60,898 bases of DNA from an uncultured Flavobacteriales bacterium (GTDB lineage: Bacteria > Bacteroidota > Bacteroidia > Flavobacteriales_C > GCA-002722245). Location: assembly GCA_963933885.1 (NCBI GenBank), contig CAWVWF010000003.1:1-60898 (forward strand), read 5' to 3'. Shown in pieces: positions 8,107-54,727 of the stretch; the stretch's first letter is position 1; each line of letters starts with the position of its first letter. Both the position numbers and the translations under genes were made by a program. The notes below the pieces were generated by a model, which saw only the letters and a program-made list of their open reading frames with translations, ran no database searches and had not been told where the DNA came from.

Positions 8107-10092
8107 TTACTCTGGACAACCTCCATTTGATTCAGGCCCAGATCTGTAAGGACAGTCATCAAATACATCTGCTGTTCCATCTCTATCGGAATCTTTATCG
8201 GTACAACCTAAATGTTGTATATCTCCTTTGATCTCTGGACATCTATCGTCGTTATCGAAAATACCATCACCATCCGTATCAGGACAGCCTTTATTAGCAG
8301 CATCACCTGGTTTTTCTGGACAAGCATCTTTCCCGTCTGAAACACCATCACCATCACTATCAGGACAACCACCTAGTTTTCCAGGAGTGTTTGGACAAAG
8401 ATCTTTTGAATCAGGAACACTATCACCATCAACATCTGGACAACCGCCAAGTAATCCATAAACATCAGGACACGAATCTTGATAATCAGCAACACCGTCA
8501 TTATCCTTATCAGGACAACCGAATAGTTCAGAATCTCCAATTATATCAGGACACATATCAACGTTGTCACCAACACCATCTCCATCCTTATCAGGACAGC
8601 CGTTTACGAACCCTTCTACATCAGGACATTTGTCTTCATAGTCATTTGTTCCATCTCCATCAGAATCTAACTTAGAAAGCTTCCTTTTAAGCTTAGCGAT
8701 CTTTCTATCTTCTTTAGAAACCTTTGGTTTGTAACCAAACAATAAATTCATTCCAAATTGAACATTAAGGTTTTTAGCATAATCAATTTGAGTCCAACCT
8801 AATACGTTGTCAGAAACAGCATATAATTGAACTGGTCCAACATTAATTGCAGTTCCTAAACCAAAGTTATCATAGCTTCTGTTTAGCATTGAATAGCTAA
8901 CTATTGCTTGGAACCATTTCCCCAAAGCTGTTTGAGTTGTAATTGTTAGAGAGGGGTAGATACCACCATTAAAAACTTTTCCATTGAATAATGCTCCTGC
9001 TGTGAAAGTATTGTTCAATTTGTATTCTACACCAGCGTAAATGTTGGCAATTAGGTTGGTTGTGAATTGTTGATCACGTCTTTCTAGTCCAAATATATCA
9101 TTTATTGAATCCGCCAGTTGATCTGTGTACTCAGTTGAATCCGCCAGGTATTGTGTTAAATCAAGCCCTTCAAATTTAAACTCAGCTTTATTGTTAAAGT
9201 ATCTTCTTGCATCTGTTTTCCAAGTGATAAACCCTACATCGGTTACATTAAGCGTACTTGTAAATCTATCGTTTATTTTGTATTTCGCTCCAAGGTCAAT
9301 AGCAAAACCAATATTTTCGAAATTTGTAGTGTAAGAAGGAATTAATTCTTCTGGAGCTGGAAGTATAGAAGCAATTGCAAAGTCAAGCCCTTTGTCAGAA
9401 ACAAGTCCTGAACCTAAACCTGCTACTCTAACTCCAATTGAAGAAGTTGCTGTAATAGAATAATTAACAGGGTCAGTGTATAAAGTGATATCTGTTTGTT
9501 CATTATCGAAATGTGATAAACCTTGTAAGAATTTAAAACGCCCACCGATAGATAACTTGTCATTTACCTCTCTTGTATATCCTAAGCCATACTCTCTAAA
9601 ATGATTGAATCGAAAACCTGTTCCGTCAATAGAAATTTCATTCCCTAAAAACTCATCGTTTGCCGTACCTTTTGCCAGTAAAGTCATGAAGTTTTTTGAA
9701 TAATCTAATGCAAAGTTTACTCTTTCAGTTACGTTAAAACTGAAGTAATTTTTCTTTTTAACCTTAAATCCAAACGAAATAAAATCAACATTTAGTTGCT
9801 GAGATATAAAGTTGTTTTCACCTAATGCATCTAATAATTTATCCGGAGTAGCATAAGTCGTATCTCCTACTGTTTCGAATATATCAGATAACGTAAATCC
9901 GTTACTAATTGTACTCAAACTAACATTTGGAAGTAAAGGTGTAATAGCAATATGAAAGTTAGCTCTTTGCATTTGAGCTGGATTATTCCTCATACTCTGA
10001 GGAACGTAATCCATATTGTATAATGTTAACCCTTGCGCTATTAAGTTGGTCCCGGTTATAGCGAGGAATAAAGTAAATAAAATCTTTTTCAT
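8107..10092 (-). CDS. DUF5723-family outer-membrane protein with C-terminal thrombospondin type-3-like (DxDxDG...DxCP) repeats
   Basis: Signal peptide, YNMDYVPQSMRNNPA start, barrel ending VQFGMNLLFG, then about 7 DxDGDGVxDxxDxCP repeats. No OmpA domain follows. Confidence 0.8.
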   Translation of the reverse strand: MKKILFTLFLAITGTNLIAQGLTLYNMDYVPQSMRNNPAQMQRANFHIAITPLLPNVSLSTISNGFTLSDIFETVGDTTYATPDKLLDALGENNFISQQLNVDFISFGFKVKKKNYFSFNVTERVNFALDYSKNFMTLLAKGTANDEFLGNEISIDGTGFRFNHFREYGLGYTREVNDKLSIGGRFKFLQGLSHFDNEQTDITLYTDPVNYSITATSSIGVRVAGLGSGLVSDKGLDFAIASILPAPEELIPSYTTNFENIGFAIDLGAKYKINDRFTSTLNVTDVGFITWKTDARRYFNNKAEFKFEGLDLTQYLADSTEYTDQLADSINDIFGLERRDQQFTTNLIANIYAGVEYKLNNTFTAGALFNGKVFNGGIYPSLTITTQTALGKWFQAIVSYSMLNRSYDNFGLGTAINVGPVQLYAVSDNVLGWTQIDYAKNLNVQFGMNLLFGYKPKVSKEDRKIAKLKRKLSKLDSDGDGTNDYEDKCPDVEGFVNGCPDKDGDGVGDNVDMCPDIIGDSELFGCPDKDNDGVADYQDSCPDVYGLLGGCPDVDGDSVPDSKDLCPNTPGKLGGCPDSDGDGVSDGKDACPEKPGDAANKGCPDTDGDGIFDNDDRCPEIKGDIQHLGCTDKDSDRDGTADVFDDCPYRSGPESNGGCPE

Positions 10093-10129
10093 GGTCTTGT
10101 TGCTTGTGGTTGGCTAGTATGTTTTAATC

Positions 10130-12232
10130 TTAGTCGTTTGCGTTTAAATCAATCTTAACTTTGGCGTAAACACCAAGTTTTATATCCATTCCAAATTTTG
10201 AGTAAAATTTAGCATTGGCACCTCCTGAGGCAGTTGCCATTTCAGAAACTAAGATGATTTTAGTTGCATTCTTAATGTTATCAACCTTAGCTTCAGTTAA
10301 CTCTATATCCTCATAAAAAGTGGTTGCTAAAACCAGGTCTCCATTTGCTGGGTCAATTACACTTGATTTTAAAACTTGAACTGGAGTACTTTTAAGAGAG
10401 TCTAAAATCATGAAATTAGAGTCTACGAAATACGCTTGAACATTTACATCTAATGGAAACTCATTGGTGATTTCTGTTTTAATATTACCAACTAATACAT
10501 TTTTAAATGCTTCTGTAGGAAAATCTAAAGTATCTATTAACTTAAAACCACTTAGACCACCATACAATGGAATTTGAACATCCATCCCAACTGCAAAATA
10601 ACTAGCATCTGTAATGAAGTTATTAAAAGGTGCTACTCCTGGATTAGTAGAACCATTCATTCCAAATATTAATTTTGAAGGGTTAATAGCTAGAATGTCA
10701 TCGATGTTTGTTGTTGTTGTGTTGATGCTAACTGTTGTTTTAACTGAATCACCGAAGTTTCCATAAGCAGGTGCACCGATTGTTATATTCCCTAAACCAG
10801 TTAAGGCTAATGTTTGCTGATCGTTAATTGCGCTGATGTTTGAAAGGTCAGCTCCTAGCTCCATTCCAAAAGAATTCGTAATTGTTAAATCAATTCTAGG
10901 ATCTGCTAAAGTTATTGTTGCATCGAAATCTAATTCACTAAAATCAAAGTCTACAGTATCAGCGTCAAGATTAAAACTTTGTATTCCAAGGTCTCCATCT
11001 AAAAATTCGATTTCTAAATTTGATAAAGTTAAATCTGCAGAAACACCATCAGTAGAAGAGAATGGAACAGGGGTATTTGAAGAAACAATATCAGCAATAA
11101 TTATTGCTACGATAGCATTAGTATCAGTATTATTTGCTGTTAAATCAAATTCATACCCTGCAAGAGGAAAAGATCCGGTAGCCACCGTTGCGGTAACATT
11201 ATTTGAAGTTATAGGAATTACCTTATTGAAAGGCGCTCCTGATCCTGTTAATGTAAGGTATGGCAATGAAAGCGTAAGGTTTGCAGATTCTTTCATACCG
11301 TAATTGATACTGTAATCTATAGAACCAGATTTTAAACGAAGTGTTTTTAAGATCTCTCCATTTGCTAAAGGCATTTTAACTGTAAGGGTATCGTCAAGGA
11401 CTTGTTGACTTGGAAAAACTGCTGTTCCTCCTGAAACTACTAAGCTAGAAGTAGCAACATTTATATTTATTGCATCAGTAAGGTCAATTGGGACTAAATT
11501 AAATATTCCACCACTACCCGGAGACTCTATATTAGTAATGTTTGCTTTTATAGCATTACTCATTGTTTGTCCAGTTAAATCAATCGCATCTGATTGAGCT
11601 GTTCCAGCTGCAATATTTGGATAGTTAACTGTACCAATTAAAGTATTGTTTACAGTGTTTCTTATTTCGATGTTTAAGTTAACTAAATCGATAGGCCAGT
11701 TGTTCGTAACAGTTAAAGTTAATGTCCCTTGAGAAAAATTAACAGTAGTAAACCCTGAGAAAGTTCCTGCTGGATGTTCACCCCCAGATTGAGCTGGTAT
11801 AGGAGGGAATGGCGCAGTACTACCATCAGCACTTTGAATTTGTGTTTTTTCTGGATCAGCAAAACTTGAAACAACACTTCCCATTGTAACACCTATACTT
11901 TGATTGATGTTAGAAATAGTAAAGGGATCCATCGTGAAAGACTGATTGATGTTTTGATCACTAATAGAAAACATATCCGATAAACCCATTCTAAACAGGT
12001 TACTTGAATAGGTTACCCACAGCAAACTATCAGCATCTATAGATAAAATTGAAGAATCGCTTTCTAGGTAATCCTTTACAAGATCATGTAAGGTTAACCT
12101 AGTATTTACAATTGGTGCGGCTACTGCTGGATTGTAGTTTTCTAAACTAATATTGTCCCATTTATAATCATCCTTTAAACAAGATGATACAATTAGAACT
12201 AACGAGGATAAGGCAATTGTAAATTTTTTCAT
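10130..12232 (-). CDS. Hypothetical beta-rich lipoprotein, probable partner of the DUF5723 protein
   Basis: Lipobox LIVSSC, AAPIVNTRLTL motif, two internally similar beta-rich halves, co-oriented directly upstream of the DUF5723 gene. Confidence 0.65.
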   Translation of the reverse strand: MKKFTIALSSLVLIVSSCLKDDYKWDNISLENYNPAVAAPIVNTRLTLHDLVKDYLESDSSILSIDADSLLWVTYSSNLFRMGLSDMFSISDQNINQSFTMDPFTISNINQSIGVTMGSVVSSFADPEKTQIQSADGSTAPFPPIPAQSGGEHPAGTFSGFTTVNFSQGTLTLTVTNNWPIDLVNLNIEIRNTVNNTLIGTVNYPNIAAGTAQSDAIDLTGQTMSNAIKANITNIESPGSGGIFNLVPIDLTDAININVATSSLVVSGGTAVFPSQQVLDDTLTVKMPLANGEILKTLRLKSGSIDYSINYGMKESANLTLSLPYLTLTGSGAPFNKVIPITSNNVTATVATGSFPLAGYEFDLTANNTDTNAIVAIIIADIVSSNTPVPFSSTDGVSADLTLSNLEIEFLDGDLGIQSFNLDADTVDFDFSELDFDATITLADPRIDLTITNSFGMELGADLSNISAINDQQTLALTGLGNITIGAPAYGNFGDSVKTTVSINTTTTNIDDILAINPSKLIFGMNGSTNPGVAPFNNFITDASYFAVGMDVQIPLYGGLSGFKLIDTLDFPTEAFKNVLVGNIKTEITNEFPLDVNVQAYFVDSNFMILDSLKSTPVQVLKSSVIDPANGDLVLATTFYEDIELTEAKVDNIKNATKIILVSEMATASGGANAKFYSKFGMDIKLGVYAKVKIDLNAND

Positions 12233-24603: not shown

Positions 24604-27600
24604 GTGTTAAGTCGCACTTTACTGATTACGAAGAATATAAGACTTAAATACTACGAGTTGAGAACTTTTGCAAGGAAAAAAATAGGACTTTTATTAGTCG
24701 CTTTAGGAACGTTATGTACTTCAATTACTGCTCAAAATTATTGGGTAGGAGGTGCGGGTGAATGGAGTGATGCAAACCATTGGGCAACAACTGATGGTGG
24801 GCAAGGAGGTATTGGTGTTCCAAATAAATCAACTGATGCTATTTTCACAGAACTTTCCGGATTAAATAATAATGATACAGTTAAAATTGATTCAATTGCT
24901 TTTGTTAAGCGATTGGATTTTTCTTTTTTAAAAAAATCTATAATACTTTCTGGGTCTTTATCTTCTAATTTATTGGTTACGGGAGATATTGTTTTTCCTG
25001 AGGAATTAATCAATAATTTTTATGGTTATGTAGTGATGGTGGGTTCAAACTCTAGCTATCGAATGAAAGTATTCCAACCTGGGGAATTTAATGGGAAAAA
25101 ATCATTTATTGATATATATAAAAATGCAAGAAATTCTGAACTTCCTTTAGCAATAACTTCAATTACGTCTAATGTTACTGACGCTACATGTGGTTGTAAT
25201 GGTGTTATAAATCTAACTGTTAATGGTGGTACTGGTCCTTTTGCTTATTCATGGTTTCCAAATGTACCTGCTTTAAATGGAGATGGAACAAATACTGTTA
25301 TTGATCTTTGCCCAGGTAAGTACAACGTAATTATAACAGATCTTTCCGATGGAATCCCTTATGTGGAATCAGATATTGTAGTAGATGGTCCATCTCCATT
25401 AACAATTCAGCATCTTTTAACTGACAGTGTAAATTGTATAGGAGGAAGTGATGGTTTTATAGTAACATTAGTTTTTGGAGGAGTAGCACCTTATACAATT
25501 GTTTGGGATGATGCCGGTTTGCAGTCTACACCAACAGCAACAGGATTACCTATAGGAGATTATTCTATTCAAGTTACGGATTTTGTTGGTTGTACAGCTG
25601 TTAGTGGGCCGTATACAGTCGAAGAACCTACCGTTTTAACAAGTTCAATAACGGATACAACTCATGTTTCATGTTTTGAAGTTTGTGACGGTGATGCAAC
25701 AGTTACCGCGGGCGGAGGTTCGCCTAGTTATTCTTATAGTTGGTATGATGCACCAGGTACCCCAACTACAATTCAGGCTACTGGTTTATGTGATGGAACA
25801 TATCACGTTGAAATTACTGATTCTAGAGGATGTTTAGATACTTCAGAAGTGATAATTACGGAACCTATTGTGTTAGCAGCGTCGATTAGTACTTTTACTG
25901 ATGTAGTTTGTTTTGGAGAAGGAAACGGAACTGCTAATACAGGAGTAACAGGCGGAACGACTACATATACTTATGATTGGTATAATGTAGGTGGGGGACC
26001 AACAACGCCCAATGTTTCCAACTTATCTCCTGGAACTTACAATGTAGAGGTAACCGATGCAAATGGATGTTTAGATACTGCGGAAGTAGTAATAATCCAA
26101 CCAACGCTTTTAACTTCATCAATTACAGACACAGTGCATGTTTTATGTAACAGTTTATGTACTGGAGAAATAGAGGTTACTGCTGCGGGAGGTACTACAA
26201 TATATACTTATGATTGGTACGACGCGGCAAATGAATCGACACAACGTGTAATCGGAATGTGTGCTGGTTCATATAATGTGGAAGTAGAGGATTTAAATGG
26301 TTGTAAAGATACATCAACAGTTACGTTACTTCAACCATCAACAGCAATAACAACTAGTATAACTGATACAACTCATAATTTATGTTTTGCCGATTGTGAT
26401 GGTATCGCAATTGTAACTCCTGTAGGAGGTTCACCAATTTATTTGTTTGATTGGTATGATTTACCAGGAGGAGATACTGATTCTACTGCATCAAGTTTAT
26501 GTATTGGAACTTATAATGTAAAAGTAACTGATGCGAATGGATGTAGCGACACATCAACTATTACAATCACGGAACCTACAATATTAGATGGAACAGCTAG
26601 TTTAACAATGGTTGATTGTAAAAGCAATTGTTCTGGAGAAATAGATTTATCACCAATTGGTGGAACAACAACTTATACATTTGACTGGTATGACGCTCCA
26701 GGGACACCTACAACAGAAGATGTAATTGGATTATGTGATGGAACTTATAATGTAGAAATTACAGATGCGAATGGTTGTTTAGATACTGTAACTTCAATAA
26801 TTATCGAACCAGATACATTGGTAGCAAGTATTATTTCTTCAGCAAACCTTACTTGTTTCGAAGAATGTATAGGTAACGCGACAGTTGATCAGATAGGAGG
26901 GACAGGACCATTTGGAATAGATTGGTATGATCACCCAACAGCTTCACCAACAACAGCTACTGTTAATAATTTATGTGCGGGAACATACAATGTAGAAATT
27001 TCTGATGCTTTAGGTTGTTTAGATACTACTTCTATTATTATAACAGAACCAGCAACTGCAGTTTCAAGTTCTATTACTGACACAGTCCATGTTTTATGTA
27101 GAAATGTTTGTTCAGGAGAAGCTGAAGTAACAGCAGCTGGGGGATTAGGAGGATATTTATACGATTGGTATGACGCGCCAAGTTCACCAAGTGTAATAAG
27201 AGCATTAGCATTATGTGCTGGGACTTATCATGTAGAAATAATAGATGCAAGTGGGTGTTTAGATACTTCAGAAGTTATCATAGCAGAGCCAGCAGGATCA
27301 CTAACAATTTCAATTAATGATTCAACAAATGCTACTTGTAATAATCTTTGTGACGGAACTGCTTTTGCAACATATTCAGGAGGAACTTCAGGATATGTAC
27401 TTGATTGGTATACTTCAGGAAATCAAACAACAGATACCTCTTTTAATTTATGTGCAGGAACTCATTTTGTAGAAGTAACCGATGCAAATGGTTGTTTAGA
27501 TACTGCAAATATTACGATTGAAGAACCATCGCCTATGGTAATAACAATTAACTCTGCAACATTACCAACATGTTTTGGTGATTGTGATGGAGTAATGAGT

Positions 27601-43753: not shown

Positions 43754-43838
43754 GCCCGGGTGGCGGAATTGGTAGACGCGCTGGATTCAAAATCCAGTTC
43801 TTTCGAGAGTGCGGGTTCGATTCCCGCCCCGGGTACCA
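43754..43838 (+). tRNA. tRNA-Leu (anticodon CAA)
   Basis: Acceptor stem GCCCGGG/CCCGGGT, D arm GGCGGAATTGGTAGACGC, anticodon arm CTGGA-TTCAAAA-TCCAG, long variable arm, T arm GCGGG-TTCGATT-CCCGC, encoded ACCA end. Confidence 0.97.
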
Positions 43839-43896: not shown

Positions 43897-45117
43897 ATGG
43901 CAGTAAAGGTGGCAGTAGATCCCGCTTTTGTTCCCAAAAAAAAAATGCAAAATACCTTCGATTTTAAGAAAGCTAGAGTGGTTGTACCAACTACAAAAGC
44001 AAGTCCTTATGTCCTGTTTTATGTTTGGGATGTTCAGCGAAATGATTTGATCCGGAAGCGAAAAATTATTCCAGTTGCTTACAAAGCGCTCGCTTCTAAA
44101 TTAGCTCACGCTAAAGAACTTGTTAAAAATATCAACATGCTTCTTAAAAGTGGATATCACATCGATCGAACTCAAGTTAAAATTCCTGTTCCAGAAGAGC
44201 GGAAGGAGCGTTTCTTAACGATTAAAGAATCCATCCCGAGATATATTAATTACTGTTCGAACATCGCAAGGAATGGCGACAAGGAATTATATGGTAAAAC
44301 CAACGACCTGAAAAAATTCAGAAACTGGCTAGCTAAAAACAGATACCACTTCGAATTCATAAGTGAAATAACAACCGGATCTGTACAGTCATATTTCGAT
44401 TATCTAGTAGAGGTAAAAGGCATTGGCCCACAAACATATAACAACACCTTAGGACGCCTAAAAAACTACTACAGCGTAGCCAAGAAGCGGAAGTGGGTAG
44501 AAGGTGAAAACCCTTTCGATTATGTGGATCGTCAAAGAACCAGTTATGGAGAAAAAAACACAGCTTACACACAAGAGCAACTCAATGAAATTATTCCCTA
44601 TGTGAAAGAAACCGATCATTATCTCTTCAATTTTATTGGCTTCATTTACTACGGATTAATGCGTCCTTCAGAAATTAGAAGGATGAGAGTAAGAAACATA
44701 GATTTTGAAAAACGACTAATCAGAATCGAAGCATCTCAGAGTAAAGTAAAAAAATTGGACATTCTCCCAATTGCAGATCCGTTATGGGAATTGATACAAG
44801 GAATGAATCTCCAAAACAGTCCATCAGACTATTTTATCTTCACAAGTAGTGAAAAGCCAGGAACAAAAGAAATGGGGCACAATTGGAGTACCGATTATTA
44901 CAAGAAAATCAAAACCCATTTTGGATTAGATTCTAACTATTCAATATATGGATTCAAACATACTTCTGTTTGTAGGTGGTACGAAGTAGAAAAGGATATA
45001 GTAAGGATTCAAAGAATGTGCAGACATTCTACTATTGAAATGACTGCACGTTATCTTAAATCATTAGGATTACTTACCGATCAATACAAGATTGATACGA
45101 TGCCGAATTTATTTTAA
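43897..45117 (+). CDS. Tyrosine recombinase / phage integrase
   Basis: Track ORF 43849-45117. SAM-like core (TYNNTLGRLKNYY..A.KRKW...NPF), catalytic GLMRPSE, YGFKHTS and CRHS...MTARYL. Confidence 0.92.
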   Translation: MAVKVAVDPAFVPKKKMQNTFDFKKARVVVPTTKASPYVLFYVWDVQRNDLIRKRKIIPVAYKALASKLAHAKELVKNINMLLKSGYHIDRTQVKIPVPEERKERFLTIKESIPRYINYCSNIARNGDKELYGKTNDLKKFRNWLAKNRYHFEFISEITTGSVQSYFDYLVEVKGIGPQTYNNTLGRLKNYYSVAKKRKWVEGENPFDYVDRQRTSYGEKNTAYTQEQLNEIIPYVKETDHYLFNFIGFIYYGLMRPSEIRRMRVRNIDFEKRLIRIEASQSKVKKLDILPIADPLWELIQGMNLQNSPSDYFIFTSSEKPGTKEMGHNWSTDYYKKIKTHFGLDSNYSIYGFKHTSVCRWYEVEKDIVRIQRMCRHSTIEMTARYLKSLGLLTDQYKIDTMPNLF

Positions 45118-45131
45118 GTGAGATTTAAGTG

Positions 45132-45231
45132 TTTACTACAACTACATTACTACATCAATAACTATTGGATTGAAAATGGTTCAATGGTGTAGTTTTGTAG
45201 TACTGTTTACTTGGTGAACGTCCCCGCTTTT
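45132..45231 (+). repeat. Composite module, copy 1: 22-bp ACTAC arm, 34-bp spacer, 44-bp arm ending in the CTTGGTGAACGTCCC motif
   Basis: TTTACTACAACTACATTACTAC (45132-45153) and TGTAGTTTTGTAGTACTGTTTACTTGGTGAACGTCCCCGCTTTT (45188-45231). Both arms are identical to copy 2; the spacers differ. Confidence 0.95.
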
Positions 45232-45304
45232 TTATTTTTTAACCAACATTCAGATTCAATACAAAAGAATCTGATTCACGGCACACGCTGTCCCCGTTAT
45301 TTTT

Positions 45305-45335
45305 TATGTAGTATCGAAACCTTGGTGAACGTCCC
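45305..45335 (+). repeat. Motif copy M2
   Basis: TATGTAGTATCGAAACCTTGGTGAACGTCCC, 29/31 identical to 49395-49425. Confidence 0.9.
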
Positions 45336-45341
45336 TATTAC

Positions 45342-45542
45342 GAACAAAAAGTTGGACTAGAGGTAGGTTTAACTTCTTATGTATCCAGACATACTTGGGC
45401 ATCAATTGCAAAGTTTTCAGGAGTTTCTCTTGCGGTGATAGGGGAGTCTCTAGGTCATTCTGATTTGAAAACTACTCAAACCTATCTTGCGAATTTCGAT
45501 CAAGATGTATTGGATGATGCAAATGATTTAATTGTTGGGTAA
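45342..45542 (+). pseudogene. 3' relic of a second, different tyrosine integrase
   Basis: Manual translation: EQKVGLEVGLTSYVSRHTWASIAKFSGVSLAVIGESLGHSDLKTTQTYLANFDQDVLDDANDLIVG*. Carries RH and LGH...TTQxY. No start codon; in-frame TAG at 45309. Confidence 0.9.
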
Positions 45543-45565
45543 TTGAAATAGTTGAGATAATTGGA

Positions 45566-45664
45566 TTTACTACAACTACATTACTACGCCTGAACTTATT
45601 AAGTAAATACTGTTTTGAGCTGTAGTTTTGTAGTACTGTTTACTTGGTGAACGTCCCCGCTTTT
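45566..45664 (+). repeat. Composite module, copy 2 (33-bp spacer)
   Basis: Arms at 45566-45587 and 45621-45664 are identical to copy 1. Like copy 1, it follows an integrase stop codon. Confidence 0.95.
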
Positions 45665-45678
45665 ATTATTTGACCCAT

Positions 45679-47658
45679 TTATTGCACATGATCCTGAAAA
45701 ATTCTAATAAATAAATTCTTTAATGCATCAATTTTAACAGGCTTAGCCATGTAGTCATCTAGGCCTTTTTCAATAAATAGCTCTCTATCTCCTTCCATTG
45801 CATTAGCCGTTAAAGCAATAACAGGAGGTGATTCTCCAAGTAATTCCTTAATTCTATTTGTAGTTTCAACACCATCCATCTCAGGCATTTGGATATCCAT
45901 TAATATAATGTCATATTGATTGGTTTTACATTTTTCTATAGCTTTTCTCCCTGAATTTACCTTATCTACTGTGCATCCTAAATGCTTTAACATAAGTTCT
46001 GCTGTTAGTAAATTTACTAAGATATCATCCACGATTAAAACTCTTTTATCGAATTTTGCAATATCCTTTTTCAGCTTAACCTCAGATAGACTTGTTTTTT
46101 TATCAGCTTTAGCTTTAAAAGTAAACCAAAAATTACTTCCTTCTCCAGGTGTTGATTCTAAGCCAATTTCGCCTCCCATTAAGTCAATTAGGTTTTTACA
46201 AATGGCCAAGCCCAATCCTGTTCCTTTTACTTTTTTAGAAGAACTTTGATCTAATTGTTGGAAATTTTGAAACAGTTTGGTTTTATTTTCTTCTGATACA
46301 CCTTCCCCTGTATCTATTATTTCAATTTTATATAACTCAAGGTTTACTTTTGAAACAATCATCTTAACGCTTCCTTGCTCTGTAAACTTAATAGCATTAC
46401 CATATAAGTTAGAGAGAACTTGAATTAATTTTCCTTTTGCTCCAATTAAAGCAGGGGGAACATCCTCTTTAACAGAAGAATGAAATGTTAATCCTTTGTT
46501 AGTAGCCAGAGAACTGAATAGATTACTTACCTGAGTAAGAATCTGTTCTATTTCAAAATTTTCATTCACCAGTTCTACTTTTCCTGCTTCTAATTTAGAA
46601 AGGTCAAGAATGTCATTTAGCAAATTTAATAGTTCATTTGATGAAGAATTTATAACTCGAACAATCTTTTTCTGATCAGTATCTAAGTTAGTTGTTGTCT
46701 TTAAAACATCAACCATTCCAATGATGCCATTCATTGGTGTTCTAATTTCATGAGACATATTGGATAAAAATTCTGATCTAAACTGTAAGGATTTCTCGAC
46801 AAGTTTTTTTTCTAATTCTAGTTTTTTTACTTTTTCTATAGCATTGTTTTTTGTCTTCAATAATTCAAAATTACCTGCCAACGACTTACTCATCTCTCTT
46901 ACTGAACTCCCTAACTCGACAAATTCATCATACCCTTTGATGTCTATGCTCACATCAAAATTCCCTAGAGATAATTGTTTAGTTATTTCTTCTAATTGAT
47001 AAATTGGCTTAGTGATTTTAATCAAGCTTTTACCAATAATTATAATAATAAGTATAGCTATGAAAACACCTGAAAACAATGAGCCATAAGTAATCATAGA
47101 TAAATCTTCAGATAATTTATTTTGATATTGGGCCTCTTTTTTTCGTAGATCGTGTTTCAAATGAGAAACGAAAAAGTTAAGAGCACTAAGCTCATTCATT
47201 ATGTTTTTTGAGTAAAATTCTGACAGAGATTTTCTATTAGAATTTAAGTCTTTAATGTTTATTAAATATGTATTAACCTTAGAAACAAGGTGATCTCCTA
47301 TTTGAATAATTTTATTTATTGCTTCATACTCTTGGTTGAGCTCAGAGTCCATCTCTAATAATGAACGTAATTGAATATTTAAACTAGGCACATCAACGTC
47401 AATATATCCTCTAGCCTTATTATAACCACTATAACTAGCCGTTGAATTTAGCTTTTTACCTTTTGGTAGAGTAATTTCAAATTCTCGTTGAATAAAGGCA
47501 TAGTTATTTATTATTATGCTTATGGGAGCTATCTGTTTATTAAACCTTTGATAATCATCTTTTACTCTTTTAACTAAAAAAAAAGAACATAAAGTAATAC
47601 CCAGCAGTATTAATGTTAGAATAGAAGAACTTAATAAGAGGTTTTTTTTTATGGTCAT
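45679..47658 (-). CDS. Hybrid sensor histidine kinase / response regulator (cargo)
   Basis: Two TM helices, HAMP, SNMSHEIRTPMNGIIG, NLYGNAIKFT, DTGEG, GTGLGLAI, receiver ILMDIQMPEMDG. Confidence 0.95.
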   Translation of the reverse strand: MTIKKNLLLSSSILTLILLGITLCSFFLVKRVKDDYQRFNKQIAPISIIINNYAFIQREFEITLPKGKKLNSTASYSGYNKARGYIDVDVPSLNIQLRSLLEMDSELNQEYEAINKIIQIGDHLVSKVNTYLINIKDLNSNRKSLSEFYSKNIMNELSALNFFVSHLKHDLRKKEAQYQNKLSEDLSMITYGSLFSGVFIAILIIIIIGKSLIKITKPIYQLEEITKQLSLGNFDVSIDIKGYDEFVELGSSVREMSKSLAGNFELLKTKNNAIEKVKKLELEKKLVEKSLQFRSEFLSNMSHEIRTPMNGIIGMVDVLKTTTNLDTDQKKIVRVINSSSNELLNLLNDILDLSKLEAGKVELVNENFEIEQILTQVSNLFSSLATNKGLTFHSSVKEDVPPALIGAKGKLIQVLSNLYGNAIKFTEQGSVKMIVSKVNLELYKIEIIDTGEGVSEENKTKLFQNFQQLDQSSSKKVKGTGLGLAICKNLIDLMGGEIGLESTPGEGSNFWFTFKAKADKKTSLSEVKLKKDIAKFDKRVLIVDDILVNLLTAELMLKHLGCTVDKVNSGRKAIEKCKTNQYDIILMDIQMPEMDGVETTNRIKELLGESPPVIALTANAMEGDRELFIEKGLDDYMAKPVKIDALKNLFIRIFQDHVQ

Positions 47659-47720
47659 AAAATATATTGCTTTGTACCTTTGTTCTTTTTAAGAATAAAT
47701 TCTATAATTCCATTTTAATA

Positions 47721-48851
47721 TTACTTAGTAACACTCTCTAACTCACTCTTCCCATTATATCTATACAATGAAAAATAGATCCCTTTTGACGCTCCATCCT
47801 TCCCTATTGAAATATTACCGCAAACACCATTATACAAATTGACACTAAATAATGATTCTCGGAGATAGTTGGTTAATTCTTTTTTCTCGATTTCTTGTTC
47901 ATTTATATTTCCGAGTATATCCATTACTAAGCCGCCAGCATCATAAGCTTGAAATATAGACCAGTATGTTTCAGGTACATTTTGATATTTAGCTTTATAT
48001 TTAACTAGTAATTCTTCAGCTTTAAATTTATTTCCATCCCTGTGAGTGAAAAAAGGAATTTCAATAAATAAGCTATCTTTAGCTGTTCTCTCAATGACAT
48101 CTTTATCAATAAAAAGATTAATTCCAAAAAAATGAGGTTTTACATTACTCTTCATACATTGGTCTAAGAATATTGAAGCCTGATGATATGTGAAATACAC
48201 AAAACAATCTGTTCCATCCTCTTTTCCTTTCTTGATCTCTTTTGTAAAACTTTTTTGATTAGGATCTACTTCCTTTATTTCACAAGTAATATTTCTCAAT
48301 TTAAGGTCATTATAAGTTTCCATTGCGACTCTCTTCATAAAGTCATTTGGATAATAAAATATTTTAACGTTATTCAGTTCTAATTCAGCAATTCTAAGTG
48401 CAACCATTTCTCCTGCATCTTCAGTCTTTTTTCCTATTTTAAAAGTGTTTTTATTTAGAGAAGAGAGTAGTGCATCATTATTTAAAAGATTAACTAAAAT
48501 GATATCATCTTTTATGAGTAGGTCTTGAAGAGCCACTGTTCCATCGGTATTACTCATAAATACCATATCTATATCATGTTTTTCTTTTAACTTTTTGTAA
48601 CATGGGATAGCATTTTCTTTTTTCCATTTGTCATCTTCAATATATAACTCCGCTTCTGGTTGGTCTTTGTCTCTATCTTGATTATACTCTGTTACTAATA
48701 GCTGAAGAGCATTAGATGAACCTATCCCAAAGTCAGTTGCTGTCTCCGTTAATGGACCTATGTAGCCTATTTTTATCTTCTCAATTTTATTTGATTGACA
48801 AGAATAAAAGAATACGGAGGAAAGAATAAATATATATGCCCAATATTTCAT
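47721..48851 (-). CDS. Periplasmic-binding (LivJ/ABC substrate-binding-like) lipoprotein (cargo)
   Basis: Lipobox FFYSC, KIKIGYIGPLT, LYIEDDK, QAYDAG. Co-oriented upstream of the kinase. Confidence 0.8.
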   Translation of the reverse strand: MKYWAYIFILSSVFFYSCQSNKIEKIKIGYIGPLTETATDFGIGSSNALQLLVTEYNQDRDKDQPEAELYIEDDKWKKENAIPCYKKLKEKHDIDMVFMSNTDGTVALQDLLIKDDIILVNLLNNDALLSSLNKNTFKIGKKTEDAGEMVALRIAELELNNVKIFYYPNDFMKRVAMETYNDLKLRNITCEIKEVDPNQKSFTKEIKKGKEDGTDCFVYFTYHQASIFLDQCMKSNVKPHFFGINLFIDKDVIERTAKDSLFIEIPFFTHRDGNKFKAEELLVKYKAKYQNVPETYWSIFQAYDAGGLVMDILGNINEQEIEKKELTNYLRESLFSVNLYNGVCGNISIGKDGASKGIYFSLYRYNGKSELESVTK

Positions 48852-49041
48852 AGTAAATTTTAGGTTCTTTACGGATTTTAATATTTTTAGTTCTTAATAT
48901 CAACGGTTTTCGTTTTCAAATATAATCATTTTAACCATAAAGTTGAATGATTTTGACAGATGCGATAGAGCCAAAACATAGTAATTCCACCTGTTTCCCC
49001 CTCAAAATCCCACCCCCTTTTCCGATCTTCTCTATATAAAA

Positions 49042-49062
49042 GATGGTGGTAGGCCCACCATC
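49042..49062. other. GC-rich hairpin beside motif M4
   Basis: GATGGTGG-taggc-CCACCATC, a perfect 8-bp stem. Confidence 0.5.
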
Positions 49063-49070
49063 ATCATAAT

Positions 49071-49090
49071 GGGGACGTTCACCAAGTAAA
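49071..49090 (-). repeat. Motif copy M4, perfect inverted copy of M1/M3
   Basis: GGGGACGTTCACCAAGTAAA is the reverse complement of TTTACTTGGTGAACGTCCCC at 45206-45225 and 45639-45658. Confidence 0.95.
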
Positions 49091-49106: not shown

Positions 49107-49328
49107 TTAAAGATTAGATCCTAGATATAATTCACTAACAGCAATTCCTATTCTTTCTAAATTCCTCCAAAGCTTTTTTCTTGATTTTCTTTTTTGCTTA
49201 ATTTCTAGATTCCCTTCATAATCCAATTTTAGAGATTCGAATTCTGGTAATTGATGTTGCTTGATGATGGGAATTCCTTCGGGAGTTATGACATGGATTC
49301 TGGCGATATTCTGATCTATTTCCATTGC
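49107..49328 (-). pseudogene. 5'-truncated paralogous fragment of the 52730-53206 gene
   Basis: 49141-49328 aligns without gaps to 52773-52960 (26 mismatches in 188 nt by hand count, about 86%). It lacks the N-terminal TM half. Confidence 0.9.
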
Positions 49329-49339
49329 AATTATTTATA

Positions 49340-49425
49340 GGGACGCTCACCAAGTAAATAATCGACCACCAAGTAAATAATACGATACTCAAATTATGTA
49401 CTATCGAAACCTTGGTGAGCGTCCC
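49340..49425. repeat. Motif copies M5 (minus strand, 49340-49358) and M6 (plus strand, 49395-49425), plus a partial repeat
   Basis: GGGACGCTCACCAAGTAAATAA, a second CACCAAGTAAATAA at 49367-49380, and TATGTACTATCGAAACCTTGGTGAGCGTCCC. Confidence 0.9.
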
Positions 49426-49702
49426 CCCTATTATCTCACATTATCCTCAGTTCTTGAGTTATTAACCAATAAGCCTTTTAATAAGCTAGGTTTGTCATGT
49501 CGTATACTTGAAACTGTCCCCTTTCCGTTAAGTTACAACTCCATAGTTATTGAAGCTGTCTGAAAACGTTTCTTGATTTAAATCCTTTTAAACTCTCATT
49601 TCATCCTTTAATTAGTGAAAAGTAACCGGTGGTTCATTCGTGAACAGGTTTGGTTTTATTATTAGTTTAATGCCTTATTTTTGCTTGAAAATAAGTATAA
49701 CT

Positions 49703-52690
49703 ATGAAAAAGATATTCCTTTTTGCTTTAATCTCTTGTTACTCTATTTTGAGTGCGAATGTAATTTATGTTTCTCCGGGAGGTACAGGAGATGGGAGTTC
49801 TTGGCAGAACTCAACAGACCTTACTACTTTGCCATGGCTCACGCCTACCGATAGTGTTTGGGTTAAACAAGGTACTTATATACCTCATGCAACTGATCAG
49901 AGTAAAAAATTCTATTTTTTACAATCAAATTTCTATGGTGGTTTCTCAGGAGTTGAAACAATGCTCGATCAAAGAGATTATATAAATAATAAAACATATT
50001 TATCCGGAGACATTAACGCTCCTGGATTTCACGAGGATAATTCTGATTTGGTGCTATTTATGAGTGCTAATACTGTTCTCGATGGTTTTTATTTTGTAGG
50101 TGGTGGAGATGATCAATTTATTGAAATAACAGATGGAAATATAGGAACTATAAAAATTAATAATTGTGATTTTGATGGATCTAGTAATCCTGGGGAATAT
50201 GGTGTAAAAAACACTGGTATTGCTGGAGAATTAGAGCTTGAGAATTGTGTGTTTCATGATTTTAACTTTTCAACTCTTAATTTTGGAACTGCTTTGCATT
50301 CGAATACAATTACAAGAATTACAGCTTGTGAATTCGATAATATTACAAACGCTTCAGGAGTCATTCGTATTCATAAAAATCCGTTTTCGGCTTATAATAC
50401 TTTTATTATTAAAACTAAGATTACTAATTGTGCTATAGCTGCAGGGTATGGTTTAATTGCTCACTTGAATGATACTAGGCACACTATGATGCTTAGCGGT
50501 TGTGAAGTAACAGGGAATTCAGGAGCATCATCAATTTTTGGAGCGGCAAAAGATCAAAATTGGAGTAGTGGAAGTTTATTGATTTATAGTTCTTTAATTT
50601 CTGGAAATTCGTTTTTAAGAGGTTTAGTCGAAAAACATGGTGGATTCGGAAGTTTAAAGATTTCTAAATCTCAAATTATTAATAACATCTATGCTGCGGA
50701 TGTGGACAAGTATGATGCGAATATTGGAAGTTTTATTTATGTTAATCAAATACGTTCTCCTGAAAGCATAACGATCGAATCATCAACTTTTGAAAATAAC
50801 GAGAGATTCAATGGAAGTGTGTTTGCTTCTTTTATTCAATCAAACATAAGTGATAGTTTAATAATTGAAAATTCTACTTTCGAAAGTAATACTGGATCAA
50901 CTAGTTTTATAGAAGGAGACAAAGGAGGGCGTATTGAAAAAAGTAAATTTATTAATAATACAGCGAGGGATCAATTTCTAAAAATGTATTCAATTCATTG
51001 TAATAGAAGTCTTTTTGTGAAAAACACTATTGATAATGGAGGTTTTGGTGCTTTTTATTCTGAATTGAATTACAACTTTGATAAGTCAAGTTTTTATAAT
51101 TGCACATTTGCAGACAACATTTGTACTAAACCAGCATTTTATTTCTATGAAGGAAGATCAAACGCAACTGAATTCAGAAATTGCATTATAACTAATAATA
51201 GTGGTGGGAATATTGATGTAAGGGAACACTTCACTCCAACTTGGAGTATTGCTTATTCAATAACAGATAATTCAGTAATGTTTAAAGATACAAGTGCAAA
51301 TAATTATCAATTAAGTTTAACTTCTCCTGGGATAGACGCAGGTAATTCATACTGGGCAGGAAGTAATGACATTGAAGGTCATTCATGGAAAGATATCAGT
51401 ACTGTTGTAAATACAGGTGCAGGTACTCCTGATTACACAGATATAGGAGCGTTTGAATCGTTAGAGTGTTCAAATTCTGTAAGTACAGCGATTGATGTAG
51501 TTTGTGAAGGGGATACGTTAGTTTTTGGAACTCAAAAACTTTTCGCAGCAGGAGATTATACTGAGGTTTTCGAATCGTATCAAGGATGTGACAGCTCTGT
51601 TACAATAACATTATCATTGAATGATACATTTAACCTTACTTCTTCAGAGACAGTTTGTTTTGGTGAGTCATATGTGTTTGGATTTCAGACATTAAATTCT
51701 TCTGGAGAATACAAAGAGACTTTTCAAACAATTTCAGGATGTGATAGCACTGTTACATTAGACTTTATAGTAAAAGAAGAGAAAAAATCAATTTTAGATG
51801 AAACTATTTGTAGTGGTGAATCTTATGTTTTAGGAACTCAAACGATTAGTACTTCTGGTCAATTTATTGAAATTTTTCAAGTAGGTGATTGTGATAGTGC
51901 TGTTACTTTAAATTTGACTGTTGCGTCTAATTATAATGATCAAGTATCAGTAGATATTTGTACAGGTAGTAACTACGCCTTTGGTAGCCAAACAGTATCT
52001 TCTGCAGGATTCTATCAAGAAACTTTCTCAAGTATTTCAGGGTGTGATAGTATTGTTACATTAACGGTCTCAATGATTAGTCCTAAAACGGGATCAGAAA
52101 CTGCATCAATCTGTAATGGAGAGACTTATACTTTCGGAACTCAAACATTAACTTCAGCAGGACAATTTCATGAGACTTTTGAAGCAACTAACGGTTGCGA
52201 TAGTATTGTTACACTAGATTTGAGTGTAACTACTATTGATAAAACAATAAGTATTAGTAATGACGAAGTAGAACTTACTTCTAACGAAGTAGGAGCTTCT
52301 TATCAATGGATAAACTGTTTTATTGATATGGATGTTCAAGGGGAAACTAGTCAAATGTTTACAGCAAACTTAAATGGTAGTTATGCAGTAGAGGTAACAA
52401 AAGAAAGTTGTATTGATACTTCAGCATGTGAGACTATATTATCGGTAGGAATAGAATCACTTGCTTCAAATGGAGTTAGAATCTATCCAAACCCAAGTTT
52501 TGGACAAATTACTATAGAAGGTGAGTTTTCAAATGGAAAACTAATGAGCTTAAACGGAACTTTGATTTCTGCTTTCAAAAACAGTAATGGTTCAATTGAA
52601 ATTTCAAACCTTGCAAAAGGAATTTATTTTATAAAACTATATAAGAATAATAAATACTTAGGTACTCAAAAACTTGTTGTTAGTAAATAG
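49703..52690 (+). CDS. T9SS type A-secreted surface protein: beta-helix-like N-domain plus Cys-containing repeats (cargo)
   Basis: Track ORF 49640-52690, ATG at 49703. VIYVSPGGTGDGSSW, beta-helix-like Asn-rich repeats, YQLSLTSPGIDAG...DIGAFE, about 5 repeats of type ICxGExYxFGxQxLxxxGxYxExF..GCDSxVTLxL, and a type A CTD (IYPNPS...GIYFIKL...KLVVSK). Confidence 0.9.
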   Translation: MKKIFLFALISCYSILSANVIYVSPGGTGDGSSWQNSTDLTTLPWLTPTDSVWVKQGTYIPHATDQSKKFYFLQSNFYGGFSGVETMLDQRDYINNKTYLSGDINAPGFHEDNSDLVLFMSANTVLDGFYFVGGGDDQFIEITDGNIGTIKINNCDFDGSSNPGEYGVKNTGIAGELELENCVFHDFNFSTLNFGTALHSNTITRITACEFDNITNASGVIRIHKNPFSAYNTFIIKTKITNCAIAAGYGLIAHLNDTRHTMMLSGCEVTGNSGASSIFGAAKDQNWSSGSLLIYSSLISGNSFLRGLVEKHGGFGSLKISKSQIINNIYAADVDKYDANIGSFIYVNQIRSPESITIESSTFENNERFNGSVFASFIQSNISDSLIIENSTFESNTGSTSFIEGDKGGRIEKSKFINNTARDQFLKMYSIHCNRSLFVKNTIDNGGFGAFYSELNYNFDKSSFYNCTFADNICTKPAFYFYEGRSNATEFRNCIITNNSGGNIDVREHFTPTWSIAYSITDNSVMFKDTSANNYQLSLTSPGIDAGNSYWAGSNDIEGHSWKDISTVVNTGAGTPDYTDIGAFESLECSNSVSTAIDVVCEGDTLVFGTQKLFAAGDYTEVFESYQGCDSSVTITLSLNDTFNLTSSETVCFGESYVFGFQTLNSSGEYKETFQTISGCDSTVTLDFIVKEEKKSILDETICSGESYVLGTQTISTSGQFIEIFQVGDCDSAVTLNLTVASNYNDQVSVDICTGSNYAFGSQTVSSAGFYQETFSSISGCDSIVTLTVSMISPKTGSETASICNGETYTFGTQTLTSAGQFHETFEATNGCDSIVTLDLSVTTIDKTISISNDEVELTSNEVGASYQWINCFIDMDVQGETSQMFTANLNGSYAVEVTKESCIDTSACETILSVGIESLASNGVRIYPNPSFGQITIEGEFSNGKLMSLNGTLISAFKNSNGSIEISNLAKGIYFIKLYKNNKYLGTQKLVVSK

Positions 52691-52707: not shown

Positions 52708-52739
52708 AAAGCCCTAGGTTCATTTTAACCTAGGGCTTT
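52708..52739. terminator. Bidirectional terminator shared by the cargo gene and the virion-like operon
   Basis: AAAGCCCTAGGTT-catttt-AACCTAGGGCTTT, a perfect 13-bp stem. It contains the TAG stop of the 52730-53206 gene. Confidence 0.9.
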
Positions 52740-53206
52740 TTTATTTTCCATCCAATGTAAAAAGTTGTTATTCCAATTCCAATTCTTTCTAAATTTCTCC
52801 AGAGTTTCTTTCTTGATTTTCTTTTTGGCTTGATTTCTAGATTTCCTTCATGATCTAGTTTTAGATATTGGAATTCTGGTAATTGATGTTGTTTGATCAT
52901 TGGAATTCCTTCTGGTGTTATTATGTGAATTTTGGCGGTATTCTGATCTAATTCCATTGCTAGGAATAAAGTGTCATGAATTAGTTTTTCTCTGATTAGA
53001 GTATCCGTTTTGTGGATGTAGATTTTGTGTGGTTTGATAACCTCTTTGATCACGATTTCCTTGTATGGTTTGTTCACGTTGATCGTATCAGTTTTGATGA
53101 CTTCTACAAATTGATTTGATGTAGTTGCGCTTCTTAGGAAGGACCACCAGATTATTACCATCATAATAGCTCCCAAAGCAAAATATGTGATTCTTTTTTT
53201 CTGCAT
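52730..53206 (-). CDS. Hypothetical membrane protein, last gene of the element operon (possibly lysis-accessory)
   Basis: N-terminal TM helix, TDT repeats, basic and hydrophobic C-terminus. 1-nt TAATG overlap with the upstream gene. Function is inferred only from position. Confidence 0.6.
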   Translation of the reverse strand: MQKKRITYFALGAIMMVIIWWSFLRSATTSNQFVEVIKTDTINVNKPYKEIVIKEVIKPHKIYIHKTDTLIREKLIHDTLFLAMELDQNTAKIHIITPEGIPMIKQHQLPEFQYLKLDHEGNLEIKPKRKSRKKLWRNLERIGIGITTFYIGWKIKKP

Positions 53207-54316: not shown

Positions 54317-54727
54317 CTAGGTTATGATGTTGTGCCAGTTCTGGAACTCATCAGAATCTAGTTCAGCCCTCATTCTGTCCGTTAATGTTTCGTTGAACTT
54401 TTGGTTGTAAGCCGATGCAACATCAGTGAAATGATCCTTTGTTTGAAAAGCAAGTTTTTCAATTGCATCCTCATCCGTTCCATCCATATCAATCATCCAA
54501 CTTGTTCCAGAAGGGTTAGAAGCTGAGCGATATTGTTGAGCCAATTGATTTACATTGGTCGTCTCGTTTTTATCAAACTGACTTTCATTGAAATTCTGAA
54601 TAACCTTTTTGATTCTTCCCTTCAAAAAGAAGAGGACAATCAAAACAATTATTCCAATAAGGATATACTTATTGGAGAGTATTTTCTTAGCACCTGAAGT
54701 AGCAACGGATATTAATTTAGGATTCAT
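54317..54727 (-). CDS. Membrane-anchored protein with one annexin-like repeat
   Basis: TM helix (YILIGIIVLIVLFFL), then LAQQYRSA...DGTDEDAIEKL...VASAYNQKFNETLTDRMRAELDSD. Confidence 0.6.
   Translation of the reverse strand: MNPKLISVATSGAKKILSNKYILIGIIVLIVLFFLKGRIKKVIQNFNESQFDKNETTNVNQLAQQYRSASNPSGTSWMIDMDGTDEDAIEKLAFQTKDHFTDVASAYNQKFNETLTDRMRAELDSDEFQNWHNIIT

Follow-up and report, generated by a model that had tools for sequence, protein, structure and literature searches.

Does a perfect pair of inverted repeats beside a tyrosine recombinase gene mark a segment of DNA that is flipped on purpose? The question is raised by a locus in a stretch of 60,898 nucleotides (GenBank assembly GCA_963933885.1, contig CAWVWF010000003.1), here called the window, from an uncultured Flavobacteriales bacterium. 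In it, the genes of a hybrid sensor histidine kinase and a periplasmic binding protein lie between two 20-bp inverted repeats, and an initial annotation read the arrangement as a possible invertible, shufflon-like cassette, or as the scar of a capture. Invertible regions of Bacteroidota are driven by tyrosine or serine recombinases and include invertible promoters as well as SusC/SusD and hsdS shufflons. Our analysis favors a different explanation, to which we assign a probability of roughly 0.6: the repeats are two singlets of a hairpin family that resembles repetitive extragenic palindromes (REPs) and their paired form (REPINs), is linked to genes of REP-associated tyrosine transposase (RAYT) type, and has colonized the cargo slot of a prophage, with no programmed inversion.

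The inverted repeats are copies of a dispersed hairpin family

The left repeat (45639-45658, TTTACTTGGTGAACGTCCCC) and the right repeat (49071-49090, GGGGACGTTCACCAAGTAAA) are exact reverse complements at 20 of 20 positions and are separated by 3412 bp holding two intact, co-oriented genes. An intact tyrosine recombinase gene, int1, ends 522 bp to the left of the left repeat, at 45117. The geometry that suggested a cassette was therefore confirmed. The pair, however, is not specific to this locus. The window contains six repeat arms, at 45206 (+), 45322 (+), 45639 (+), 49072 (-), 49340 (-), and 49412 (+); those outside the pair (45206-45224, 45322-45335, 49340-49358, and 49412-49425) are identical or nearly identical to it. 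Searching the window with the 19-mer and up to three mismatches gave 4 matches against 0.02 expected from shuffles. Across the whole draft genome (G000; 3.44 Mb in 271 contigs, numbered with a C), to which all repeat counts refer, the exact 20-mer recurs on contigs C23, C50, and C105, and the core GTGA[AG]CGTCCC is found 21 times on 8 contigs, compared with 0-1 occurrences for each of 30 permuted 11-mers. Chance or low-complexity similarity is refuted by both excesses. All but two of the 21 cores lie outside open frames of at least 120 amino acids (aa), and most arms are far from any integrase. Among the 40 related genomes that we compared, the motif is absent save for one match with a single mismatch (G035). 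The perfection of the 20-bp pair thus reflects a conserved family core rather than a special relation between the two copies. A general scan of genome contigs with an 18-position degenerate pattern was uninformative, returning only single chance matches, mostly in unrelated and largely GC-rich genomes (e.g., Streptomyces).

The arms are about 30 nt long, carry a GGGGACG head, and come in two types, A (TGTCATATTnTTTACTTGGTGAACGTCCCC) and B (TGTMGTATCRRAACCTTGGTGAACGTCCC). In a complete unit, B in reverse complement is followed by a loop of ~9-40 nt and then by A, the whole making a REPIN-like hairpin doublet of 70-90 nt. One such doublet is present in the window (49340-49426), four on C105, and one on C202, besides many singlets. 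As single strands, complete units are predicted to fold into hairpins whose outer stem has 15 bp and whose inner part is poorly paired, at -18.4 kcal/mol (z = -6.3) for window positions 49335-49430 and -18 kcal/mol (z = -4.8) for one of the C105 units. The window doublet reads GCTCAC / GTGAGC where other units have GTTCAC / GTGAAC, and the T>C and A>G changes form a compensatory pair. Taken alone, the head shows no more than a weak near-dyad of 13 nt.

The GGGGACG heads are turned outward wherever they belong to a complete unit or flank one of the transposase genes described below. Around the kinase/binding-protein pair they are turned inward (...CGTCCCC, the pair, GGGGACG...), so that the pair occupies the interval between two units rather than the interior of one.

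A target-site duplication, ATTAC, was considered around the C105 hairpins; the flank is common to all four copies and may belong to the element. The C105 stretch (9240-11530; L002) comprises 2.3 kb without open reading frames (ORFs) of at least 70 aa, with the four complete hairpins co-oriented. With a 303-bp tandem unit and copies of neighboring DNA that have diverged, it is a repeat-bounded duplication array.

The family is linked to RAYT-like transposase genes

Nine Y1_Tnp proteins are encoded in the genome, five of which form a subfamily of 210-220 aa. The transposase exceeds the PF01797 cutoff (52.6 bits against 23). The best NCBIfam model for the subfamily is REP_Tyr_transpos (NF047646), which the C208 protein matches at 68.3 bits with a cutoff of 80; the IS200 score is 21.5 bits. 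Three of the approximately nine repeat loci (C87, C208, and C202) lie near genes of this subfamily. By a rough estimate, three of nine loci would lie this close by chance (3 kb at most) to any of five genes in a 3.4-Mb genome with a probability of ~1e-4 or less.

On both sides of the C87 gene stands a 21-nt inverted repeat, TAAATAGGGACGCTCACTTTT, also written (T)AAATAGGGACGCTCAC(TTTT), whose 14-nt head is identical to window positions 49337-49350 (shared head ATAGGGACGCTCAC). On C208, GGGGACGTTCACCAAGG lies 130 bp upstream of the Y1 gene, and the contig ends 35 bp past the stop codon, so that only one side is visible. The C208 arm truncates a protease-like gene with the tail of a type IX secretion system (T9SS) substrate, and the cut-off gene shows ...CGTCCCC to be a terminus of the element. 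On C202, a hairpin doublet lies 2.7 kb from the Y1 gene. Homologs of the subfamily transposase were found in genomes of the same family only, and five of the six homologous copies are flanked by inverted repeats with related GGGAC-type heads (GGGGGACAGACG, GGTGACAGCGACC, TTAGGGACAGCGCC, and TAATAGGGACAGA). In genome G013, the head has five copies, two of which flank the transposase gene.

These results establish the existence of the family, its hairpin form, and its link to transposase genes. We read it as a lineage-specific set of repeats scattered through the genome, belonging either to the REP/REPIN type or to the families of terminal inverted repeats (TIRs) that flank RAYT genes. In the process that we envisage, the Y1 transposases would spread the arms by acting on single-stranded hairpin DNA, and copies would have accumulated in the intergenic DNA of a cargo slot bounded by the integrase and the final virion-operon gene. 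Mosaic junctions could then have arisen through repeat-associated insertion or deletion, and programmed inversion would not be part of the process. A RAYT/REPIN-like system is hereby documented in a marine Bacteroidota, with heads that covary with the transposase across related genomes.

At the C87 locus (6225-6365), 129 bp that take in the RAYT-like gene's 3' end and its terminal repeat are also duplicated in tandem, with the stop codon TGA inside GTGAGCGTCCC. Each of the other Y1 subfamilies (~185 aa; C204, C70, C172, and C139) lies between long palindromic repeats of its own in inverted orientation, and one such family (GTACTTTTTGATTTAGCGAAGCGTAATCTAAAAGGTAAA) has 23 BLAST matches on 14 contigs. 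The genome thus harbors several independent REPtron-like systems.

The gene pair occupies the cargo slot of a prophage

The repeats lie in a cargo slot of variable content, bordered by a tRNA-Leu integrase on one side and by the final gene of a tailless-virus-like prophage on the other. The features of the region, in order, are as follows.

43754-43838, plus strand: tRNA-Leu(CAA) gene (ARAGORN; Rfam tRNA, 61 bits), the attachment-site gene of the island/prophage
43897-45117, plus strand: int1, intact tyrosine recombinase (PF00589, 66 bits; weak PF13102 match)
45132-45225, plus strand: two-arm ACTACA/TGTAGT module with A-type arm copy 1 (TGTAGTACTGTTTACTTGGTGAACGTCCCC; core at 45206-45225; fold of the single-stranded DNA, z = -2.2)
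45304-45335, plus strand: B-type arm (TTATGTAGTATCGAAACCTTGGTGAACGTCCC), abutting the broken integrase int2'
45342-45543, plus strand: int2', C-terminal relic (~66 codons) of a second, unrelated tyrosine recombinase (C-terminal part of PF00589, E = 8e-7)
45566-45658, plus strand: second ACTACA/TGTAGT module with A-type arm copy 2, of which 45639-45658 is the left inverted repeat
45679-47658, minus strand: hybrid sensor histidine kinase, 659 aa, intact (profile matches to HAMP, HisKA, HATPase_c, and Response_reg)
47721-48851, minus strand: periplasmic binding protein, 376 aa, intact (profile match to Peripla_BP_6)
48917-48924, minus strand: TAnnTTTG box, within the repeat-bounded segment, 66 nt upstream of the binding-protein ATG
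49042-49062, minus strand: terminator-like hairpin followed by a T-run, within the repeat-bounded segment
49071-49100, minus strand: A-type arm copy 3 (TGTCATATTCTTTACTTGGTGAACGTCCCC on the minus strand), of which 49071-49090 is the right inverted repeat
49107-49325, minus strand: o72', relic of the 3' half of the terminal prophage-operon gene o158 (187 nt, 87% identical to 52774-52960)
49340-49426, no strand assigned: complete REPIN-like hairpin doublet with a variant core in both arms (GGGACGCTCACC / GGTGAGCGTCCC)
49640-52690, plus strand: second cargo gene, a secreted protein of 1016 aa with a T9SS C-terminal sorting domain
52730-53206, minus strand: o158, last gene of the prophage virion/lysis operon and right border of the cargo slot (gene order kept in L154, L155, and L160)

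The slot (45.1-52.7 kb) is a mosaic in which every segment junction except the last falls at an arm. Its left part runs from int1 and its module through an A arm, a stretch of 78 unassigned nt, the B arm, and int2' with its module to another A arm; its right part continues with the kinase/binding-protein pair, an A arm, o72', the hairpin doublet, the T9SS gene, and o158. The unit formed by an A arm and an o158 fragment is also found in a related organism (L020/L021) at ~80% identity and in another context, where its other side is bounded by GGTGACAGTCTCC, likewise a head of the GGGACG type. The prophage is thus documented as having a cargo slot colonized by hairpin repeats, with mosaic junctions at the repeats.

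Homologs of int1 (54-63% identity) are integrases of tRNA-Leu(CAA) islands and prophages, and in two other genomes they adjoin the same tRNA gene. The database gene call for int1 gives 406 aa, and a start at the ATG at 43945 would give 390 aa. The int2' relic is a remnant of the integrase of a sister element, judging by its 61% identity to the integrase of prophage L157. An ACTAC-repeat/TGTAGT module with an unrelated spacer follows int1-type integrases in three organisms and, in the window, also the int2' relic. In L158 (~1350-1420) and L160 (~11200-11300) it stands without an arm. The module may serve as a terminator or as a group of arm-type binding sites.

Sister elements with a matching operon order (702-aa protein, 211-aa capsid-like protein, RadC, o158) were found at four loci in three other genera-level genomes. 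Their terminal gene and a convergent integrase enclose other cargo: a T9SS M4 protease in L157, a BsoBI-type restriction-modification system in L155, and a DUF7948 protein in L154. In L160 (GCA_002295925.1, DBGO01000001.1), an int1-type integrase lies at tRNA-Leu(CAA), and the o158 homolog begins 231 nt past the integrase stop codon, which makes this an empty slot. A GGGACG-headed arm is present in none of the sister prophage slots compared. The arrangement resembles the moron or cargo slots of other prophages, where the integrase and the last structural or lysis gene enclose variable genes that are transcriptionally autonomous and sisters carry other cargo or none. It differs in that six host-type hairpin arms subdivide the slot, along with relics of a second integrase and a second terminal gene. 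Relatives of o158 or int1 were absent from viral-contig scans, and a search of the assembly for a direct repeat of the tRNA-Leu 3' end, which would mark the island's far end, found none.

The int1-type integrases at tRNA-Leu(CAA) in L160 (10001-11887) and L162 (GCA_965183885.1) lie next to prs, the ribosomal L25 gene, and pth. Defense cargo accompanies two of the relatives, namely, a Type ISP restriction-modification system with PycTM in L162 and a DNA methylase with a ResIII-family helicase in L158. In the secreted 1016-aa protein of the window, the C-terminal third consists of ~50-aa repeats with conserved Cys residues (153-bp period).

Inversion of the segment would change little

TAnnTTTG is the -7 promoter consensus of Bacteroidota. 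On the minus strand, the A arm (49100-49071) is followed by the terminator-like hairpin, the TAnnTTTG box, the binding-protein gene, the kinase gene, and, 20 nt past the kinase stop codon, the next arm. The pair is thus an autonomous segment with its own terminator-like and promoter-like signals, and the hairpin at 49062-49042 would insulate it against upstream transcription. No arm interrupts a coding sequence around the pair; the arms are intergenic and outside the predicted promoter. Because these signals are internal and no coding sequence is cut, inversion would bring about no off-switch, rewiring, or new fusion, and the idea that a flip serves as an expression switch found no support.

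An ENA contig, L009 (ERZ27292849, k119_418846), spans window positions 54421 to 46733, and a TARA contig, L022, which may share source data with the genome, spans 49436 to 47567. Both cross the right arm in the same orientation as the window at 100% identity. We found no contig with an inverted junction, although the agreement of three assemblies on one orientation covers the right junction only and is weak evidence. L009 is identical to the window for 7689 bp and then continues, exactly from the conserved SHEIRTP H-box onward, into an unrelated kinase C-terminal half; it represents a strain whose kinase is recombinant or else a chimera of the assembly.

Like known invertible regions of Bacteroidota, the locus has perfect inverted repeats near a tyrosine recombinase, with extra copies nearby in both orientations. 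Unlike them, it has a repeat that occurs genome-wide, a 3.4-kb segment of two whole genes with their own signals, no split promoter or coding sequence, an integrase of the tRNA-Leu island/prophage family, and no second orientation in the data seen. The proposed tyrosine-recombinase cassette is accordingly unsupported, for the repeats are mostly remote from integrases and at three loci adjoin RAYT-like genes instead, and the homologs of int1 are integrases of tRNA-Leu islands or prophages that have no such repeats. The gene pair is most likely ordinary cargo between two selfish repeats and not a programmed flip-switch. A perfect inverted repeat by a Bacteroidota integrase is easily taken for a phase-variation switch; recognizing it here as the core of a selfish repeat family removes a false lead.

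The pair, the binding protein included, has no ortholog at E <= 1e-20 among the 40 relatives. Two paralogs of the pair at 41% identity are found in the same genome, on C44 and C52, and neither is associated with an arm. Exact-protein look-ups gave one ENA contig for the binding protein and zero results for the kinase and for int1 with either of two alternative starts.

Weighing the explanations

The favored explanation rests on a likeness to REP/REPIN-RAYT systems (Bertels & Rainey 2011, PMC3116915; PMC3337134 for the REPtron/REPIN pattern) and to RAYT genes that lie between long TIRs, the TIR families being moderately abundant (Di Nocera et al. 2013, PMC3733652). Shared traits are short repeats overrepresented in extragenic DNA, an inverted hairpin doublet as a replicative-looking unit beside many singlets, compensatory change in both arms, a Y1/HUH gene bracketed by inverted copies with heads outward, and related transposases in related genomes that carry related, diverged heads. 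Several differences weigh against it. The ~21 copies are few for a REP family, which usually has hundreds; the ~30-nt arms, with a 15-bp outer stem and two inner types (A and B), are longer than classical REPs and have no terminal GTAG tag, CGTC lying inside GAACGTCCCC within the head and not at the tip; there are five paralogous transposase genes, whereas classical RAYTs are single copy; and the NCBIfam score falls below the curated equivalog cutoff (68.3 versus 80). The host, a marine Bacteroidota known from a metagenome-assembled genome, differs as well. The crowding of six arms within 4.3 kb beside two integrase genes also counts against the REP/REPIN-RAYT reading, as does the recurrence of the same module and arm after two unrelated integrases, which hints at a link to tyrosine recombinases and which the favored explanation leaves to coincidence or recombination history. 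Any transposing or cleaving action of the Y1 proteins on the arms is, moreover, something we infer from sequence.

Those same two features are among the arguments for regarding the arms as an array of core recombination sites of int1 or of the lost int2, in which inverted arms would flip the pair and direct arms would excise or swap cargo in a shufflon- or integron-like slot. The arms occur there in both orientations beside an intact integrase and an integrase relic, an arm marks every heterologous segment junction, two arms abut broken genes, and the unit of arm and o158 fragment recurs in a related organism in a different context. We nevertheless judge this explanation improbable. Most arms in the genome are far from integrases, with three loci adjoining Y1 transposase genes; the slots of sisters with int1-type (L158, L160, and L162) or int2-type (L155 and L157) integrases have no arms; the position of the arms outside coding regions and the promoter leaves an inversion without obvious phenotype; three assemblies show a single orientation, at the right junction only; and the L009 variant breaks within the kinase gene and not at an arm. 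The integron-integrase model also fits int1 poorly. An integron cassette array in the strict sense was rejected, with int1 scoring 26.9 bits against a cutoff of 265 for TIGR02249 and not being of IntI type. The arms were likewise rejected as attC sites, because those in the window point both ways and are for the most part half-sites; co-orientation is confined to the C105 array, which is free of ORFs of at least 70 aa. A variant in which GGGACG arms are shared by host RAYT-like transposases and tailless-virus-like prophages, and the slot acts as an integron-like cassette exchanger on REP-type sites, strikes us as equally improbable. Arm-bounded, gene-sized segments (the sensor pair, integrase 3' ends, and terminal-gene fragments) would then be cut and pasted or flipped at the arms, and, if true, this would be a new route of cargo exchange in proviruses.

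A somewhat less doubtful, though still unlikely, alternative is that in a cargo-less ancestor the stretch from the integrase to the terminal operon gene had the two A arms abutting tail to tail, in the manner of a bidirectional terminator or a REP "TT dimer." The pair would have been inserted once between them by illegitimate or repeat-targeted recombination, leaving the repeat as an inert fossil, a history compatible with membership in the hairpin family. It would explain why an A arm follows both int1 and int2' and why one follows an o158-type fragment here and in L020/L021. The 231-nt distance between the integrase and o158 in the cargo-less sister L160 fits it as well, as do the lower G+C content of the segment (0.30 versus 0.36 in the flanks) and the lack of orthologs in relatives. 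Yet no intact tail-to-tail palindrome of the family exists anywhere in the genome, the empty slot of L160 has the ACTAC module without an arm, and the full-length o158 has no adjoining arm, the arm being next to the relic copy instead. As for the initial annotation, its suggestion that the repeats are a trace of the segment's capture came nearer the mark than its flip-switch, which is not supported: all junctions between 45.1 and 49.4 kb lie at arms, and a sister slot is empty. The favored explanation remains that of singlets from a RAYT-linked family that settled in a prophage cargo slot.

Group II introns and other elements

Some bacterial group II introns target hairpins, and the family described here has been entered by one. 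The intron (Rfam RF00029, 67-68 bits) encodes a reverse transcriptase (RT)/maturase (TIGR04416) in which no endonuclease domain was seen, and lies at the following positions.

C50:894-969; C61:~15750; C23:20317-20473 and 24814-24890; C114:~71 (L001, L003): group II intron

Three of the five intron 3' ends abut a hairpin element, and two introns are inserted at the same position in the left arm. On C50 and at C23:20333, CACCAAG in the left arm is where the 3' exon begins, and the insertion point thus follows GGGGACGTT. A group II intron is thus documented as landing repeatedly in the same repeat. The 5' junction and 5' half of the intron were not found in the assembly, and contigs C50 and C61 each begin at one and the same base inside the RT gene. 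REP sequences are known as targets of mobile elements, as with ISPpu9 in the REPs of Pseudomonas putida (PMC8450116). Compared with such REP-targeting elements and with hairpin-targeting group II introns, the intron here lies inside the arm and not downstream of a hairpin.

Window positions 49354-49385 read CACCAAGTAAATAA-TCGAC-CACCAAGTAAATAAT, and the 12-mer TCGACCACCAAG equals the junction of intron 3' end and exon on C50. No intron is present here, and the 12-mer may be a footprint of intron loss. A reverse transcriptase on C101 was set aside as lying outside the C50/C61 intron family and unrelated to the repeats; its flanks suggest a retron- or Abi-like type. A further conserved element of ~100 nt, ATCAGGTGCTATGAGCCTCTTGATCCCTTTCTGCAA.G.GGGGACGTTGTTGGGTGATTATCTATAAT, is present in four copies (C7:16437, C20:10967, C227:1477, and C248:2375).

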